A DNA stretch of 59,024 bases from Escherichia phage Utah: the sequence record KY014601.1. One strand, 5' to 3'. The translations under genes were made by a program, and so were the position numbers. Shown one piece after another: positions 614-56,530 of this stretch (positions are counted from its first letter, which is position 1; each line of letters starts with the position of its first letter). The notes beneath the pieces were generated by a model, which worked only from the letters and a program-made list of their open reading frames with translations, was not told the DNA's origin and did not search any database.

Positions 614-901
614 ATGCAGCACGATGAATGCCGTGAAACGTTGATGGATTTCAAACGACAATTACAGACACATTTGAAGGCGATTTTACGTCGTCAGGGG
701 GTCACACAGAGCGCGCTTGCGACGATGATCGGCGTACACCAGTCAAGATTAAGTTTCATGCTTAACAGTGACGCAGACAGAGTTTCGATCGATAAACTCA
801 TTGAAGCGATAGTGAAACTGGATGGCGTGTTTATGGTGAAAATCGGAGATCAAACAGACATAAATCGAGTGCGGTACAAGGAGTGCGAAGACAACGTTTG
901 A
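614..901 (+). CDS. XRE-family helix-turn-helix transcriptional regulator (Cro/CI-like)
   Basis: 95 aa; HTH segment QSALATMIGVHQSRLSFMLN typical of XRE/HTH_3 regulators; own promoter and terminator. Confidence 0.6.
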   Translation: MQHDECRETLMDFKRQLQTHLKAILRRQGVTQSALATMIGVHQSRLSFMLNSDADRVSIDKLIEAIVKLDGVFMVKIGDQTDINRVRYKECEDNV

Positions 902-941: not shown

Positions 942-3527
942 CTAAACTTCGTCTTCATCGTCAAACGGGTCTGGCTTTTTGCCGACCAGTTTTTCGACTT
1001 CTGCGTCATGCCGTTTTAACGTAGTCTGCACCCATGACGAGTTAAGTTTCCCCGCGTCATCGAATGCCCCTTTGACCCGCTTACGGACATAAACGCGGCC
1101 AGATTCGCCGCCAAATTTGACCACGCCGCCCGGCTTGAAGCCCAATTCCATAAGCATGTTTTTCAGGCGGTTCGTCTTCGGCATTTCCACGTCTGTCATT
1201 TCGAGGAATGCGTTTTTCAGGGACGGCACGAAGATGACGTCGCGGTGTACGCCCGGCGTCGTTCCGTCACGAAGCATTTGTGCGATTGCGCCTTCCACGC
1301 CATCGTCAGACGCGTCGGCCATGACCGCGAATGCTTCGGTGTCCTGCGGTGCGTGTCCTTTGGCATCGAAATCCTTTCCGATCTCCCAATCGAGGAACCA
1401 CTTTTTGATAGCAGGTGCGTGGTTTTCGATTGCCCGGTACACGTTTTTGAAGAAGCGCGCGCGTTCAGTCTTCGACCCGTAAACCCGCTCCATGTCCAGA
1501 TGATTTTCTGCCTGCGTTGACACCACCAGATAACGACGCTGGTTTTCATCGAGTGGCAATGCGTTGAAGTGGTTGGTGAACATCATTTTGCTGCTGGTGT
1601 TCACTACTTCCTTCGGCTTGCGGCCCTTTGGCTCAATCTGGAAGCGGTCGTTTGTGATGAATTCCTTCTGGCGTTCCACCGCGCTGTACCTATCGCCTTT
1701 GTCGTAGATCTCTTCCACGATTTTCAGGATGTGGCCCTCGGCCCAATCGCTGAAACGGCCATTCATCACGGTGTTTGACACATAGCCCACGTTCGACGCG
1801 CCGAGCATCCGCGACATGATGATGCCGAGCGTCGTTTTACCAGAACCATGCGCACCACGGATCAGAAGCGAGTAGTTGATGCGTTTCGTTGGGTGCTGAA
1901 TAACCCACGCCATCCAGTCCAGAACATAGCGGCGTTCCTTCTCGTTCGGGAAAAGCACGATGAAGAAGTCTTTGATGATCTCCAGCGCCTTTTTGTCGTA
2001 CGGAGAAAGGTCAGTCGCGGCCTCCGGAATGGATTCAGGGTCAAAAGAGTTCAGCCACGTACGCCCACGGTCGTCAATAAAGAATTCCGGCCCGATCACC
2101 CCCTCTTTCGGCTTCCACACAGATTCCGGCATGTCACCGTGCATCGCCGGGTAGTACATCGCGTCCCAAACGATAGGAACCGGGCGGACTACCGACGCAT
2201 AGTGGACAGGCTTGAAGGCTTCTTCCTCAAACACGCATTTTTTCGCAAAAGCGACGTCGAAAGCGCCTTTTGTGATGTAATCGCCCGTGGTTTTTTCGAT
2301 AAAACTGTCATTTGCCTTCGAGAAAACGAAGTTTTTCAGCCACTGCGGAGTCTCTTTTGACCCGTAATCGAAGCCCAAAAGCTCCCTTTTGTCACCAGCA
2401 GTGAGGCGGAAGTTGTTGATCCTGCGGTATGCTTCGGCCGCAATCTGGACGATGGCCTTGCGGGTAAGCCCGAAAATCTGCGCTTTTTTGAATGATTCGG
2501 CCCACGCATTCCAGTCATTCGCCTCGGTACACTCGGCGAAAGCCTCGCGGTACTCGATGGCGCGTTCTTCCTGCTCGGCTTTCTCGATGTCCTGCACTTC
2601 TTTGATGATGGTGCCGAGCGTGATCAGTCGAGTCGAGTTGTGCGCGAAGCCCTTATCCCACTTGTATTCGAAATCACCTTCGTCGAAGTTGTGTGCCTGC
2701 ATGGCCCATTCGCGGGCAATGGCCTTCGCCTCGTCCTGATCGCGGCAGGAAATTTGCAGCGCGGCCAGTACGGTGATGTAGTTCTCGTAATCTTCCGGGT
2801 TCGGGTATTTCAGGACGATGTCGCGCAGTTCATCGTACGTGCCGTCCCACTTTTTGACGTCAGACAGCGCGGCCCAATCGTCATCGTCTGCCGAACCGAT
2901 AGACTCATAACCGTTCATTGGCCGTTTGACCATTGTCCAGCCCAAGTCCTTCGCGTATCGGTCGAATTCGGCGGCGATCTCGCGAGCGGTATCGAGGCTG
3001 ATCTCTTCGAGGTCAAGGTCGGCGGCGTTGTTCAGCGGATTCTCGCCATCAATCCAGTAATAGTCGCGCTTGGTGTCCGGGTGGATACCGTACGCAACGA
3101 ACTGCTGGCCGTCGGCGAGGATTTCAACTGCATGGCGCTGGCCGAAGTCGTCTTCCCACACGCCGGATTTCACTTTGGCGAACGGGTTTTCGGTTCGGTA
3201 CAGGTAGAGTTTCTTCGGCTCCCGGCCGATACGACATGGCGCTGCACCGACGTTCTCGGCGATCCAGTCTGCCATGTGCGCCACGGCGTCTTCATCGTAA
3301 ACGTCGATGTCAACCGCCGGGGTGTATTTGGTCAGAATCCCGATGCCGTTATTCGTATAGCGTTTCGCCCAACGCTGGATCTGCTCCTTATCATTGATTG
3401 TTCGTTCCCAATCTTCACCGATAGGGCGTTTGCCCGCACCCTTCTTATCGGCGTCCGGGGCGTAGATAGGTACGATGGTGTACCCATTCCCCCAAAGCGT
3501 TTCGCCGTACTCTTGCCAGTAGTTCAT
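942..3527 (-). CDS. Bifunctional primase-polymerase (PrimPol N-terminus) fused to D5/SF3-type helicase
   Basis: 861 aa; N-terminal PrimPol-like region (TIVPIYAPDADKKGAGKRPIG..., VDIDVYDED acidic motif); C-terminal Walker A GAHGSGKTT; acidic tail ...DDEDEV. Confidence 0.8.
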   Translation of the reverse strand: MNYWQEYGETLWGNGYTIVPIYAPDADKKGAGKRPIGEDWERTINDKEQIQRWAKRYTNNGIGILTKYTPAVDIDVYDEDAVAHMADWIAENVGAAPCRIGREPKKLYLYRTENPFAKVKSGVWEDDFGQRHAVEILADGQQFVAYGIHPDTKRDYYWIDGENPLNNAADLDLEEISLDTAREIAAEFDRYAKDLGWTMVKRPMNGYESIGSADDDDWAALSDVKKWDGTYDELRDIVLKYPNPEDYENYITVLAALQISCRDQDEAKAIAREWAMQAHNFDEGDFEYKWDKGFAHNSTRLITLGTIIKEVQDIEKAEQEERAIEYREAFAECTEANDWNAWAESFKKAQIFGLTRKAIVQIAAEAYRRINNFRLTAGDKRELLGFDYGSKETPQWLKNFVFSKANDSFIEKTTGDYITKGAFDVAFAKKCVFEEEAFKPVHYASVVRPVPIVWDAMYYPAMHGDMPESVWKPKEGVIGPEFFIDDRGRTWLNSFDPESIPEAATDLSPYDKKALEIIKDFFIVLFPNEKERRYVLDWMAWVIQHPTKRINYSLLIRGAHGSGKTTLGIIMSRMLGASNVGYVSNTVMNGRFSDWAEGHILKIVEEIYDKGDRYSAVERQKEFITNDRFQIEPKGRKPKEVVNTSSKMMFTNHFNALPLDENQRRYLVVSTQAENHLDMERVYGSKTERARFFKNVYRAIENHAPAIKKWFLDWEIGKDFDAKGHAPQDTEAFAVMADASDDGVEGAIAQMLRDGTTPGVHRDVIFVPSLKNAFLEMTDVEMPKTNRLKNMLMELGFKPGGVVKFGGESGRVYVRKRVKGAFDDAGKLNSSWVQTTLKRHDAEVEKLVGKKPDPFDDEDEV

Positions 3528-3805
3528 TCAAGGATTTCCCCTGTTTCGCTGTCCGTTTTGATCCATGAAGGGTTAGTCAGCCAATGCGGACGGATGCCGC
3601 AGTGAGGGACAGCTTTGCAAACTTTTTCGGCCACGCTGCTCGTTACGTTGTTCTGCACGGCCCATAACAATGTCGGGTAACTGATCTTCGCTGCCTTCGC
3701 CAGTTCGGCCATTCTGGCGTTCGGGTCTACCTCCAAAGCCGCTTGCATCATGAGAAATTTGACCCGCATCCGGTCGTCGTTTAAAGCCCAATCTGGAAAT
3801 CGCAT
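3524..3805 (-). CDS. Small putative DNA-binding protein (HTH-like), first gene of leftward primase operon
   Basis: 93 aa; segment MAELAKAAKISYPTLLWAVQNN resembles an HTH; 4-bp overlap with primase-helicase start; promoter immediately upstream. Confidence 0.4.
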   Translation of the reverse strand: MRFPDWALNDDRMRVKFLMMQAALEVDPNARMAELAKAAKISYPTLLWAVQNNVTSSVAEKVCKAVPHCGIRPHWLTNPSWIKTDSETGEILE

Positions 3806-3847
3806 AGTGATGCCCTCGCGTAATGTGCGCGTGTTATAGATTTGCGG

Positions 3848-3876
3848 ATATTATATCCGGGCTTGACATCTGTCAA
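3848..3876 (-). promoter_or_regulatory. Leftward sigma70-like promoter (TTGACA-17-TAATAT) embedded in two palindromes
   Basis: Minus strand: TTGACA (3871-3876), 17-nt spacer, TAATAT (3848-3853); plus-strand palindromes GGATAT-T-ATATCC (3846-3858) and TTGACA-TC-TGTCAA (3863-3876) overlap -10 and -35. Confidence 0.55.
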
Positions 3877-3890
3877 GTTGGCCAGTTATT

Positions 3891-3941
3891 CGGGTACCAA
3901 AGGCGCTTTATGTCCGGAAAACAAAGGGCTTGCGGTACCCG
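3891..3941. promoter_or_regulatory. 8-bp inverted repeat CGGGTACC ... GGTACCCG, candidate operator in divergent control region
   Basis: CGGGTACC at 3891-3898 and GGTACCCG at 3934-3941, 35 bp apart. Confidence 0.3.
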
Positions 3942-3965
3942 AATAAAAAATTTCTAAAAAAGTGT

Positions 3966-3995
3966 TTGACAGTGATTCGGCGTTTGGGCCATACT
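3966..3995 (+). promoter_or_regulatory. Candidate rightward promoter for the long plus-strand operon
   Basis: TTGACA 3966-3971, then weak -10 CATACT about 18 nt downstream; ATG 4048 with GGAG RBS. Confidence 0.3.
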
Positions 3996-4047
3996 TCATC
4001 CCGTCAACACGACACGACCTTTTAAACACTTAACGGAGTAGAAAATT

Positions 4048-4464
4048 ATGTCTGGTATCTTCGAACAACTGCTGGCTGAACAACAAAAAACCAACACCCT
4101 GCTGGAAGGCGTTCTGGCAGCACTGAAAGGCGGCGCGGTGAACACTTCCGCTGACGCTGGTAGCGAAACTACTGAAAAAACCACCACCACCAAAGGCGGT
4201 GCTAAGGGCGGCGCGAAAGGCGGTGCAGGTAAAACCGAAACTAAAGCGGTCAAGCCTAAACACACCAAAGACGAAGTAGTCGCGGCTGTCGTTGCGGTTA
4301 AAGACGCGTTCGGCGCGCCGGAAGCCAAGAAAATCACCGCACACTTCGGCCTCGCCAAAGTCGCGGAAGCGAAGGAAGAACACTTCGACGAAATCGTCGA
4401 AATGTGTGAAGCCAAACTGGCTGAAAAAGATGAAGGCGGTAACGGCGAAGAAGACGACGTTTAA
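4048..4464 (+). CDS. Hypothetical Ala/Lys/Gly-rich protein with acidic C-terminal tail
   Basis: 138 aa; KGGAKGGAKGGAGK low-complexity segment; ends ...GNGEEDDV; good RBS. Confidence 0.5.
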   Translation: MSGIFEQLLAEQQKTNTLLEGVLAALKGGAVNTSADAGSETTEKTTTTKGGAKGGAKGGAGKTETKAVKPKHTKDEVVAAVVAVKDAFGAPEAKKITAHFGLAKVAEAKEEHFDEIVEMCEAKLAEKDEGGNGEEDDV

Positions 4465-4525
4465 TCTTTCGCCCCGCATCGGCTCCCTTCGGGGGGCCGT
4501 TTTTCACACCAACGGAGAGGCAATT

Positions 4526-4855
4526 GTGACCAGCATTACTTTCACCAACGTAGCAACATCCGGCGGCGCAGTTCTCGCGCGCACTTGGGCGGAGTTTCGT
4601 TTTCAAATCGGTGATCGCGATGTGCTGTTCAGAGTTACTTCACCTGTTTCGAAACACGAAGCGCCGCTGCTCGTAACCCATGCTGCATCGGGCTATCGAG
4701 TGTGCGACGTCTGGTGGGACGACGTGGCGAAGACTCGCTTTAACGCAGGCCGCAATAATTACAGCGGGGCAGGCGCTAGGGCATTGGTAGCGACGATTGA
4801 GCGAGTCGGCGAACACCGATTCCTCAATGCGATAAAGGCGTATCCGAATGAGTAG
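4526..4855 (+). CDS. Hypothetical protein (GTG start)
   Basis: GTG at 4526 preceded by GGAGAGG RBS; longer ATG-initiated ORF (4292) would overlap previous gene by 170 nt and span a terminator-like hairpin. Confidence 0.4.
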   Translation: MTSITFTNVATSGGAVLARTWAEFRFQIGDRDVLFRVTSPVSKHEAPLLVTHAASGYRVCDVWWDDVAKTRFNAGRNNYSGAGARALVATIERVGEHRFLNAIKAYPNE

Positions 4856-41822: not shown

Positions 41823-42284
41823 TTAAATGGTCGGGTGGGTAATAATCACAGTACGTTCACCCTCGATTGTCTGGTGGTACCGCAGTGAGGACACCAGATG
41901 ATCGAGGTTATTGAAGACCGGGATATTCAGCCGCTTCGCCTCTTCCACCTCAGCGCGGGTACCGGAACTGCGCATCGCATCTTCGCCAATCAGCAGAACC
42001 GCGTCACAACGGCGCATCAATTCCATCGTGCATTCCAGCCAATATTCGTCCGGTATCTCGCCCTCTGTCTTGTGCTCGAAGTGGGCCGTGTTCAGGTGCG
42101 GAGTAACCGGGAACATCTTGTGGACGTAAAGTTGATCGACAACCGACACGGCCGTCTCTTCGGCTTTCAGGATGTTGACCGTCGTCGGAACGGTGCAGCC
42201 CGAACCGATGATGTACGGGCGGTACGGCCCGGCCAGATAGATCATGACGGGCTTGGCCGCCGGGTTACACATATTCACGTTCAT
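41823..42284 (-). CDS. Nucleoside 2'-deoxyribosyltransferase / DNPH1-like protein
   Basis: 153 aa; VMIYLAGPY N-terminal motif and LLIGEDAMRSSGTRAEVEEA resembling the catalytic-Glu region of deoxyribosyltransferase-fold enzymes. Confidence 0.5.
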   Translation of the reverse strand: MNVNMCNPAAKPVMIYLAGPYRPYIIGSGCTVPTTVNILKAEETAVSVVDQLYVHKMFPVTPHLNTAHFEHKTEGEIPDEYWLECTMELMRRCDAVLLIGEDAMRSSGTRAEVEEAKRLNIPVFNNLDHLVSSLRYHQTIEGERTVIITHPTI

Positions 42285-42565
42285 ATTAAGCCTCGGTTAT
42301 ATTCGTCCACGTATTTTTCATTTTCAGGAGATCGGTCTACCTGATTAATCTCGCTGAACTCGCAGGAAATAATATCCCCACTAGGCAGGCGCACCCGCCA
42401 AAAAACATCCTCTTCACGCGGCCCGGTGCGTTCCCATTCGAGCACGGTTCCGTAGTATTTATGCCCGTTGAATCGGTCAGTGAAATGCACGGAGTCGCCT
42501 TTAATCGGCCAGCCCGGTTTTATCTTGGCACGGTATTTCCGTTTTATAGCCTCAACGTCGATCAT
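42281..42565 (-). CDS. Hypothetical protein
   Basis: 94 aa; operon context, 4-nt overlap with downstream gene. Confidence 0.45.
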   Translation of the reverse strand: MIDVEAIKRKYRAKIKPGWPIKGDSVHFTDRFNGHKYYGTVLEWERTGPREEDVFWRVRLPSGDIISCEFSEINQVDRSPENEKYVDEYNRGLI

Positions 42566-44437: not shown

Positions 44438-44467
44438 AATATAGGTTATACACGCGACGTATGTCAA
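44438..44467 (-). promoter_or_regulatory. Leftward promoter with conserved spacer element (TTGACA-TACGTCGCGTGTATAAC-CTATAT)
   Basis: Minus strand -35 TTGACA (44462-44467); spacer contains ACGTCGCGTGTA core shared with promoters at 46494, 49756, 53083. Confidence 0.6.
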
Positions 44468-46491: not shown

Positions 46492-46493
46492 TA

Positions 46494-46522
46494 ATATTAA
46501 TTACACATGTCGCGTATGTCAA
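46494..46522 (-). promoter_or_regulatory. Leftward promoter (TTGACA-17-TAATAT) with conserved spacer element
   Basis: -35 TTGACA 46517-46522, spacer TACGCGACATGTGTAAT, -10 TAATAT 46494-46499. Confidence 0.6.
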
Positions 46523-53082: not shown

Positions 53083-53111
53083 ACAATAGTTCTACACGCG
53101 ACGTATGTCAA
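53083..53111 (-). promoter_or_regulatory. Leftward early promoter (TTGACA-17-TATTGT) with conserved spacer element
   Basis: -35 TTGACA 53106-53111, spacer TACGTCGCGTGTAGAAC, -10 TATTGT 53083-53088. Confidence 0.55.
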
Positions 53112-53800: not shown

Positions 53801-54058
53801 ATGGAAAAGGTATATAACGCGATCAAGGGTCAGACGTTGCAACATTGGTTAACTATTGCCATCAAGCGCGACGAAAACGGAGACGCGACGGTCGAACTAC
53901 GCAGCACGATCCACGTTAACCGGGTGAGCACGCTTTCTTTTTCATGGGGGAAGGAATTCACCGACGCCGATATTTTGAATGACGCCGATTTATTACGCGT
54001 CATTTATCAGAAGTATGGGCGCGAAATTTTCACCGCTGATTTTACACGTAACATCTAA
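53801..54058 (+). CDS. Hypothetical protein (AT-richer right-arm operon)
   Basis: 85 aa; RBS GAGGT; A/T-rich codon third positions by eye. Confidence 0.5.
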   Translation: MEKVYNAIKGQTLQHWLTIAIKRDENGDATVELRSTIHVNRVSTLSFSWGKEFTDADILNDADLLRVIYQKYGREIFTADFTRNI

Positions 54059-54076: not shown

Positions 54077-54616
54077 ATGCAAACCATTAACACCAAATAC
54101 CATAACGGGAAAATCGTTGCGACGTCGTGGAATGGCTGGACGCGTTCAGAATATGACGCGGCGTTATCCAGTGAGCAAAATCACCGCGCCGCCGCTGAAA
54201 AGCTAATCATTAAACTGAATAAAGGCCGCTCGATGGAATGGGGGATCGTGAATAGTGCGCCATCCGTGCCGGGCGTGCGTGGTAAAGATAACGGCTGGAC
54301 GTTTATTATTGGTTATGTGCCGGAGGTTGCGCCGCTGGATATGTCAATCACTGTTAAATTCTGCCCGGCAACAAATAAAGGCCCGGCGTTTATGCGCGCT
54401 TATTCGTGGTTAGTGCCGCGCGGGATCAAGGTTAACTATTCGCCACGCGTCGCCGACGGGTCAGATATTCAGGCAAACGCACGTTATGCGGCGGGAATCA
54501 TGTTAGACCGCATTAATGAAATATGCCGCGAGGGGGGCGATCTCTTAGGCTGGAAAATCGCGGACTATGTGCAACTTTACGACGGCGATCGCCTGTTCAC
54601 ACTGAAATCTAATTAA
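54077..54616 (+). CDS. Hypothetical protein
   Basis: 179 aa. Confidence 0.5.
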   Translation: MQTINTKYHNGKIVATSWNGWTRSEYDAALSSEQNHRAAAEKLIIKLNKGRSMEWGIVNSAPSVPGVRGKDNGWTFIIGYVPEVAPLDMSITVKFCPATNKGPAFMRAYSWLVPRGIKVNYSPRVADGSDIQANARYAAGIMLDRINEICREGGDLLGWKIADYVQLYDGDRLFTLKSN

Positions 54617-56483: not shown

Positions 56484-56530
56484 TTGACGCACGCCGCGTA
56501 TATCATTTATATTTAAATTCCCTTCGGGGG
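56484..56530 (+). promoter_or_regulatory. Second rightward promoter unit (TTGACG-17-TTATAT) with conserved core and UUCG stem-loop
   Basis: TTGACGCACGCCGCGTATATCAT-TTATAT then CCCTTCGGGGG; gene ATG 56575. Confidence 0.6.

Follow-up and report, generated by a model that had tools for sequence, protein, structure and literature searches.

Two perfect palindromes over the predicted leftward promoter of the gp3 and primase-helicase genes in a Chi-like phage: candidate operators of recent origin

The sequence analysed (the window) is a 59,024-nucleotide (nt) stretch of Escherichia phage Utah (record KY014601.1). At positions 3845-3877 it carries two perfect palindromes, one over each hexamer of a predicted leftward promoter that precedes gp3, a gene for a small protein with a predicted helix-turn-helix (HTH), and the primase-helicase gene. 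Dyads over both hexamers are well beyond chance. The arrangement is read here as an early sigma70 promoter overlaid by two operator-type dyads that would give negative control, a reading to which a probability of about one in two was assigned.

The ~1.1 kb surrounding the promoter matched Salmonella phages SeWh-1 and SeZq-1 at 100% identity and phage Chi at 96.5%, which places the window among the Chi-like phages (Casjensviridae, Chivirus). Its coordinates match those of KM458633, and it reads from the cos end. Chi is described as lytic (PMC4342425). For comparison, the regions upstream of gp3 were gathered from 26 relatives, plus 8 metagenomic relatives with gp3 identity down to 31%. The features of the promoter and its operon are as follows.

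3845..3859, no strand: -10 palindrome CGGATAT-T-ATATCCG (7+1+7), conserved core CGGATA-N3-TATCCG
3862..3877, no strand: -35 palindrome CTTGACA-TC-TGTCAAG (7+2+7), conserved core TTGAC-N4-GTCAA at 3863-3876
3871..3876, minus strand: -35 hexamer TTGACA of the predicted leftward promoter (P_left), a 6/6 match; TTGAC[ACGT] at the homologous position in relatives
3848..3853, minus strand: -10 hexamer TAATAT; its N17 register is kept in the family, with TACTAT, TAATAT, TATTAT or TACACT at N17/18
3850..3855, minus strand: alternative, perfect TATAAT, with a spacer of only 15 base pairs (bp); specific to the window allele
3841..3843, minus strand: predicted start of transcription at a run of A residues 5-7 nt past the -10, placed by sigma70 geometry
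3524..3805, minus strand: gp3, 93 amino acids (aa), first gene of the operon and candidate autoregulator, predicted lambda-repressor-like HTH
942..3527, minus strand: primase-helicase (Prim-Pol + PriCT_2 + DUF5906), overlapping the gp3 stop by ATGA

The first-pass annotation of the window had placed the -35 inside TTGACA-TC-TGTCAA and the -10 inside GGATAT-T-ATATCC, and both were confirmed as perfect and slightly longer palindromes. The stretch GGATATTATATCC at 3846-3858 is part of the perfect 7+1+7 palindrome CGGATATTATATCCG at 3845-3859, and TTGACATCTGTCAA at 3863-3876 is part of the perfect 7+2+7 palindrome CTTGACATCTGTCAAG at 3862-3877. Across the promoter the plus strand reads GCGGATATTATATCCGGGCTTGACATCTGTCAAGTT, with a gap of 2 bp between the palindromes and one hexamer inside each. 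At 15 and 16 bp, the dyads fall within the 14-17 bp expected of operators, and they overlap the elements contacted by RNA polymerase.

Perfect palindromes in the window (arms of at least 7, spacers of 0-3) were counted and compared with first-order Markov simulations. Seven distinct palindromes were found against 17.7 +/- 4.1 simulated, i.e. the genome is palindrome-depleted. Two of the seven are the promoter pair and a third lies upstream of gp1, so that the upstream regions of two regulator genes hold 3/7. A non-overlapping pair no more than 10 bp apart occurred in 5% of the simulated genomes (~0.8% given only 7 palindromes). When both hexamers of a 49-bp promoter block were held and the other 37 positions shuffled (200,000 trials, arm of at least 6), dyads over both hexamers arose in 2.4e-4 of the shuffles. 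With this frequency per promoter and only ~7 strong sigma70-like sites in the window, the paired dyads are well beyond chance. A search of 3300-4600 for known RNA families returned only sub-threshold noise.

The promoter itself was recognised by a consensus scan as TTGACA-GATGTCAAGCCCGGATA-TAATAT on the minus strand (spacer 17 bp, 10/12 consensus matches). Each relative with gp3 identity of at least ~50% has TTGAC[ACGT] (one exception, TTTACT in KPN_N137), then 17-18 bp, then TACTAT, TAATAT, TATTAT or TACACT, and TTGACT-N18-TACTAT is present even in a relative with 36% gp3 identity. Because the N17/18 register is conserved across relatives, TAATAT at 3853..3848 was taken as the functional -10. 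The TATAAT at 3855..3850 is probably not the hexamer in use; Chi and the SPN19-clade phages have TATACT at this position and TACTAT in the N17 register. Either candidate falls within the -10 palindrome. The gp3 ATG (3805) lies 42 nt beyond the end of the -10, with a Shine-Dalgarno sequence, GAGGG, at 3817..3813. Thus a -35 near TTGACA, a -10 with A2 and T6 at 17 +/- 1 bp, and a position and orientation before a gene bearing a ribosome-binding site were all observed, and on these features a leftward sigma70-type promoter for gp3 and the primase-helicase is very probable. The gp3 stop and the primase-helicase start overlap in ATGA, and the two genes would therefore be translationally coupled. 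The conserved hexamers and spacing, together with this overlap, bear out the initial assignment of the palindrome-bearing promoter to the primase operon.

The homologous -43..+3 block of the relatives was scanned for any perfect dyad with arms of at least 5 and a spacer of 0-8. Perfect dyads in this block were found only within Chivirus: the window has both with 7-bp arms, Chi has 6+2+6 and 6+3+6 forms, and the SPN19 clade has the -10 dyad, CGGATA-TAC-TATCCG, alone. The 6+3+6 form of the -10 dyad is retained in Chi, SP-030, YSD1, phage 37, SP-124 and STP-3, and in Seifer it has one mismatch. The block held no perfect dyad in Seifer, the metagenomic phage with 73% gp3 identity, Enc34, SAP012, Rostov43, the Providencia phages or the Klebsiella Yonseivirus group, and in the more distant relatives no dyad lay over the promoter hexamers. 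Among 97 database records matching a 70-bp block, about half had the window-type allele, a few the Chi type and 41 the SPN19 type. This distribution makes both dyads recent acquisitions: the -10 dyad was gained in the common ancestor of Chivirus and the -35 dyad in the Chi clade only.

Within the Chi clade, substitutions were found outside the core arms of the dyads. At the -35 dyad, 118970_sal1 has CTTGAC-AGAC-GTCAAG and ZCSE8 has CTTGAC-AGAA-GTCAAG. Base 3868, at the dyad centre, is T, C or A among isolates while GTCAA is invariant, from which the true -35 core was defined as TTGAC-N4-GTCAA. In Chi, the outermost pair of the -35 dyad is lost, and an A-to-C change in the -10 turns 7+1+7 into 6+3+6. 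Across 12 Chi-clade genomes, four sites (3868, 3862, 3861 and 3851) were variable in the 33-bp block 3845-3877. Each of them falls at a dyad centre, in the outermost pair or in the 2 bp between the palindromes, and the 22 core-arm positions are free of variation (hypergeometric p ~0.008; 0.026 for the 21 non-hexamer positions only). Between the Chi and SPN19 clades, the -35-proximal half of the spacer differs at 5-6 of 11 positions and the CGGATA half is unchanged. Fixed arms with free centres are the pattern that operators would be expected to show.

In the proposed mechanism, host RNA polymerase with sigma70 would start at ~3841-3843 and transcribe gp3 and the primase-helicase gene. The core TTGAC-N4-GTCAA would span the -35 and the proximal spacer, and CGGATA-N3-TATCCG would take in the -10 and the discriminator together with the distal spacer. 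With a dimeric protein on either dyad, the -10 or the -35 would be occluded, RNA polymerase excluded and the operon shut off. Since a bound dimer would exclude the polymerase in this way, the dyads most likely serve to control the replication operon negatively, by shut-off or autoregulation. That the dyads are protein-binding operators at all was judged to have a little better than an even chance.

The leading phage candidate for a binder is gp3, more so for the -10 dyad. Its annotated start is inconsistent (93 aa in Chi vs 75 aa in Siskin, MH631453 3584-3811); the 93-aa start at 3805 is supported by the N-terminus MRFPxWA, which is conserved in all relatives. An AlphaFold2 model (predicted local distance difference test 93.6, predicted TM-score 0.84) is a helical bundle with helices at 11-26, 32-38, 43-51 and 56-65 and the HTH at 32-51. 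The leading Foldseek matches in the PDB were all XRE/Cro-type HTH proteins (NHTF, SinR, HigA, ClgR, C.BclI, C.Esp1396I, C.AhdI, 434 and lambda cI), with a probability of up to 0.99 and a target-normalised TM-score of ~0.5-0.68; the E-values were weak (0.03-0.4). A lambda-repressor/Cro-type HTH fold is thus predicted with high confidence from the model. Proteins of this type bind palindromes as dimers, and many autoregulate. Pfam gave nothing at threshold for gp3 (HTH_26, E=0.047, and HTH_24, E=0.038, both under the gathering score), NCBIfam gave no match, and the best PDB profile was the LacI headpiece (E=0.22). The protein belongs to PHROG 7401, whose function is not known in PHROGs. It falls in a very small Cro/YdaS-like HTH family: a search of 1.84 billion representatives gave 33 clusters at E<=1e-3. 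In each retrieved context that extends past gp3, a Prim-Pol/DUF5906 primase comes next, except in one short contig with an unannotated open reading frame (ORF).

The gp3 sequence was 100% identical in 59 Chi-clade records, and the -10 dyad accompanies gp3 of at least 84% identity. The recognition helix is YPTLLWAVQNN in the Chi clade vs YSTLLWATQNN in the SPN19 clade. The substitutions P44S and V50T coincide with the loss of the -35 dyad, a pattern that shared ancestry explains equally well. As gp3 is the first product of the operon, its autoregulation in the manner of Cro, a C protein or HigA is the simplest reading; that gp3 binds at least one of the promoter dyads is nevertheless rather doubtful. 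The first-pass suggestion that the small HTH protein of the first gene regulates its own operon stood in part: the predicted repressor fold and the position in the operon agree with it, and the dyads are not co-conserved with gp3, which occurs throughout the family while the dyads occur in Chivirus or the Chi clade only.

A further repeated element lies upstream of the promoter.

3886..3946, no strand: 61-bp inverted repeat TTATTCGGGTACC...GGTACCCGAATAA, lying between the two divergent promoters; GGTACC cores: 3893-3898, 3934-3939

Only three 7-mers are common to the intergenic region of all nine divergent groups, and CGGTACC, usually present twice, is one of them. In SAP012 the GGTACC sites are separate local palindromes (TCGGTACCGA and GTTGGTACCAAC); the relative with 36% gp3 identity has two copies of ACGGTACCGA, and the one with 31% has GGTAA/TTACC dyads instead. 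The flanks of GGTACC change together and complementarily (TTTACGTCGGTACCGTA / TACGGTACCGCCGTAAA in the relative with 73% gp3 identity; GGTGCC/GGCACC in Seifer). Homologues of gp3 with 31-44% identity keep the synteny with the primase and have no promoter dyads, with GGTACC or GGTAA/TTACC dyads upstream. Genome-wide GGTACC is not rare (26 copies vs ~18 expected), so it is its positional conservation that gives it significance. The repeat is the best candidate for a family-wide operator, possibly that of gp3.

Several observations weigh against operators that shut off the replication operon. The -35 dyad is restricted to Chi-clade genomes, and the SPN19 clade is without it. Outside Chivirus the dyads are absent though gp3 and the helix-3 core Y-x-T-L-L-W-x-x-x-N are conserved; the core residues Y43, T45, W48 and N52 are invariant down to ~50% identity in phages that have no promoter dyad. 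It is the upstream GGTACC pair that is conserved together with gp3, to identities as low as 36%, and this pair is a better candidate for the ancestral operator of gp3. The two promoter dyads have no half-site in common, which makes it unlikely that a single protein acts on both and implies two binders or binding modes; with up to 3 mismatches allowed, no further copies of either palindrome were found in the window beyond chance. The TAT+CCG of the right arm of the -10 dyad is kept also in phages outside Chivirus that have no dyad, and part of the arm conservation is thus promoter constraint. Just four variable sites stand behind the polymorphism test, and no paper was found on promoters, operators or gp3 of Chi-like phages. 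The earlier proposal that the palindromes are operators for dimeric repressors was supported as to dyads of operator size over the hexamers and substitutions that spare their arms; no shared half-site or co-conserved regulator was found.

The strongest competing explanation, which has a sizeable minority chance, is that the dyads are functionless by-products of promoter sequence carried in a young clade. A partly self-complementary, A/T-rich -10 and a second TTGACA-like hexamer arising in a free spacer would be sufficient. This would account for dyads in close relatives only, with none in the homologous promoter of other groups, and for TAT and CCG of the -10 dyad being kept for promoter reasons without a dyad. 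Variability in the Chi clade is also similar inside and outside the block (4 sites/33 bp vs 5/48 bp in the flanks), and ~18 palindromes with arms of at least 7 are expected in a random 59 kb. Opposed to it are the joint frequency of 2.4e-4 with the hexamers already fixed, the overall avoidance of palindromes by this genome and the sparing of the arms by substitutions: the centre of the -35 dyad was mutated at least two times, and the five adjoining arm bases never. A more elaborate account, in which a two-operator 'double lock' evolved stepwise in the Chi lineage and is read by gp3 (or, at the -35 dyad, by a host sensor of the FNR type), with GGTACC as the ancestral site, is improbable as a whole.

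The -35 dyad could instead be a site for a host protein of the FNR/CRP family that represses the replication operon under, e.g., anaerobiosis, which is unlikely. The E. coli FNR consensus is TTGAT-N4-ATCAA. The dyad core has the same 5-N4-5 layout exactly, with a variable centre, and matches this consensus at 8/10 positions. Fnr/Dnr boxes of another bacterium, TTAAC-N4-GTCAA and TTGAC-N4-GTTAA, have similar half-sites (PMC5398030). Moreover, no phage protein could be assigned to the -35 dyad: the Chi-clade ORFs absent from SP-030 and present in the window and Siskin (42281-42565, 53801-54058 and 54077-54616), all three without a known function, gave no lead to a binder. On the other side, the dyad centre (3869.5) is ~27.5 bp before the predicted start at 3842 and not at the activating -41.5 or -61.5, and would fit a repressing position only; its TTGAC half is no more than the -35 hexamer itself; the SPN19-clade phages, which infect the same host genus, have no -35 dyad; and the -10 dyad is left unexplained.

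It is very unlikely that the palindromes, the 61-bp repeat and the A/T tract are DNA hairpins for a replication origin or primase loading. Three dyad elements do line up across 3845-3946 ahead of an A/T-rich tract, between the primase and polymerase operons, and single-stranded folding was far above that of shuffles (z ~ -5). The promoter palindromes, however, yield stems of 6 bp only, coincide exactly with the promoter hexamers and are missing from most relatives, whose replication must proceed in the same way, and the GGTACC sites of the SAP012 type are separate local palindromes, the signature of protein sites on duplex DNA.

The first-pass annotation had also named the XRE regulator encoded at 614-901 as a possible binder, and this was contradicted.

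614..901, plus strand: gp1, XRE regulator (HTH_37/HTH_3, Pfam); excluded as palindrome binder

The gene encodes a genuine HTH_37/HTH_3 protein and is only 3 kb away, but gp1 of BP12C and Siskin is 32% identical to that of the window, with another recognition helix and another upstream region, while their gp3-promoter palindromes are identical to those of the window. Over those parts of the gp3-gp4 intergenic region that were aligned, BP12C differs at one position, 3885. Conversely, Chi has the gp1 of the window (one substitution) and yet weakened 6+2+6 and 6+3+6 palindromes. Because this natural cassette swap leaves the palindromes identical, gp1 is effectively excluded, and its binding to one or both of them is hardly credible. 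It also has an unrelated operator-like set of its own: an extended -10, TGcTATAAT, at 572-580 is flanked by a palindrome ATAACAAATTTGTTAT (= ATAACAAA|TTTGTTAT, 538-553) and, at 584-591, by a third half-site, TTTGTTAT. The set at 538-591 probably comprises the operators of gp1 itself. SP-030 carries a third gp1 type (35% identity); gp1 is thus an exchangeable cassette, with at least three types, 32-35% identical, in the same slot of otherwise near-identical phages. Other DNA-binding domains were sought with Pfam in 30 proteins (29 of the right arm and gp5), and only Dam, RdgC and DUFs were obtained.

Equally implausible is that TTGACA-TC-TGTCAA represents back-to-back -35s of divergent overlapping promoters: a plus-strand TTGACA is present at 3863-3868, but GTTATT, TTATTC and TATTCG, 16-18 bp on (3885-3892), lack A2 and T6 of a -10, the promoter scan gave no rightward site there, the real rightward promoter is at 3966-3995, and the plus-strand hexamer of the SPN19 clade is CGTAAA.

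Two neighbouring features flank the palindromes and the inverted repeat.

3817..3831, minus strand: stem-loop CGCG-CACATTA-CGCG of the 5' untranslated region (5'-UTR), adjoining GAGGG (3817..3813), in the conserved element ACACGCGCACA (3834..3824)
3945..3995, plus strand: divergent rightward promoter from the consensus scan, with an UP-like A/T tract (3945-3962), -35 TTGACA (3966-3971), N18 and -10 CATACT (3990-3995)

The 5'-UTR dyads of relatives have changed arms (CGCA-CACA-TGCG, CACGC-GCAT-GCGTG, TGCGC-GTGT-GCGCA and CGCGCATGCGCG) and loops of 0-8 nt, and since both arms and loop lengths vary, an RNA hairpin is suggested rather than a protein site on duplex DNA. A search for a motif common to TATAACACGCGC of the gp3 5'-UTR and the spacers conserved in four right-arm promoters gave no support for one. 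The rightward promoter serves the genes for gp4, exonuclease, SSB (single-stranded DNA-binding protein) and DNA polymerase, and is as conserved as P_left. The sole 8-mer common to the intergenic region of all nine divergent groups is GTCAACAC/GTGTTGAC (window 3960-4031), found in Chivirus at the rightward transcript start (4003-4010) and in the distant groups as the -35 of the rightward promoter. The sequence CG[GA]ATA is found four times within 100 bp (3845-3850, 3854-3859, 3887-3892 and 3940-3945); one inverted pair belongs to the -10 dyad and the other lies in the outer flanks of the 61-bp repeat. In genomes of the Siskin/Chi type, CCCGGATA is present in direct repeat. The recurrence of CG[GA]ATA may be coincidental; the SPN19 clade is without the flank copies.

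Four of the seven strong sigma70-like sites (44438-44467, 46493-46522 and 53083-53111 on the minus strand; 56484-56513 on the plus strand) have a conserved spacer, TTGACAtacgtcgcgtgta, and in this family of right-arm promoters a GC-rich hairpin lies within ~10 nt past each -10. Two of the hairpins are followed by T-runs (CCCCG...CGGGGATTTTT and CTCCCG...CGGGAGTTTTTT), a leader or terminator-like structure just after the start. Beside the cos end, GTTACAA/TTGTAAC occurs 7 times in ~260 bp (226-482), with 2 occurrences in the other 58 kb, and these repeats may be iterons for terminase or replication. The Chi-like segment was also present in several records that name a Staphylococcus, Listeria or Enterococcus phage (e.g. 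GU169904, Staphylococcus phage SA1, 147 kb; OR849940; OR847083), which are probably contaminated, chimeric or mislabelled assemblies.

The arrangement over P_left was compared with known regulatory systems. In the lambdoid Cro/PR-OR system (lambda, 434, P22), a small HTH protein is encoded first in an early operon that runs on into replication genes, and palindromic operators of 14-17 bp overlap the -35 and -10 of its own promoter and give self-shut-off. Similarly, gp3 is first in the replication operon, the dyads lie over the -35 and -10, and the gp3 model is akin to the 434 and lambda repressor domains. OR differs in that it consists of several related copies shared with a divergent repressor promoter, whereas the Chi-like phages have two unrelated single-copy dyads and no partner of the CI type. 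The C-boxes of restriction-modification systems are a GACT-N3-AGTC-type dyad in two copies, one over the -35 and one further upstream, with activation first and repression afterwards. A small XRE-type HTH protein that autoregulates through such dyads is likewise encoded first and is translationally linked to an enzyme gene, and C.BclI, C.Esp1396I and C.AhdI were among the Foldseek neighbours of gp3. The two Chi dyads are unlike one another and free of GACT/AGTC boxes, however, and gp3 is not a member of that family at the sequence level.

Among antitoxins, E. coli HipB has operators of the form TATCC-N8-GGATA, which have the half-site TATCC/GGATA in common with the -10 dyad; in the latter, GGATA-N3-TATCC, orientation is opposite and spacing different. 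PaHigA binds two TTAAC-GTTAA palindromes in PhigBA and autoregulates (PMC6987408). HigA, which was among the best Foldseek matches of gp3, thus resembles the proposed system as an XRE-fold protein that represses its own operon through promoter palindromes; unlike the antitoxin operons, the Chi operon has no toxin partner and its two palindromes are not identical. The mechanism class proposed here, occlusion of a sigma70 promoter by a repressor, is textbook, and what is somewhat unusual is that an old promoter has two different perfect dyads, each centred on one hexamer and gained stepwise.

Relatives of Chi, the classic flagellum-dependent phage of Salmonella, are under development for biocontrol. 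Nothing published was found on the control of early or replication genes in Chi. If nothing binds the dyads, the finding amounts to the annotation of a strong early promoter only. If they are operators, they would mark the switch that limits the primase-helicase, and gp3 would be the first regulator of the family with an assignable target. The gain of dyads clade by clade on a conserved promoter would also make a tidy case of regulatory evolution and, if the stepwise two-operator account is true, a natural and datable gain of operators on an existing promoter in a virulent phage.

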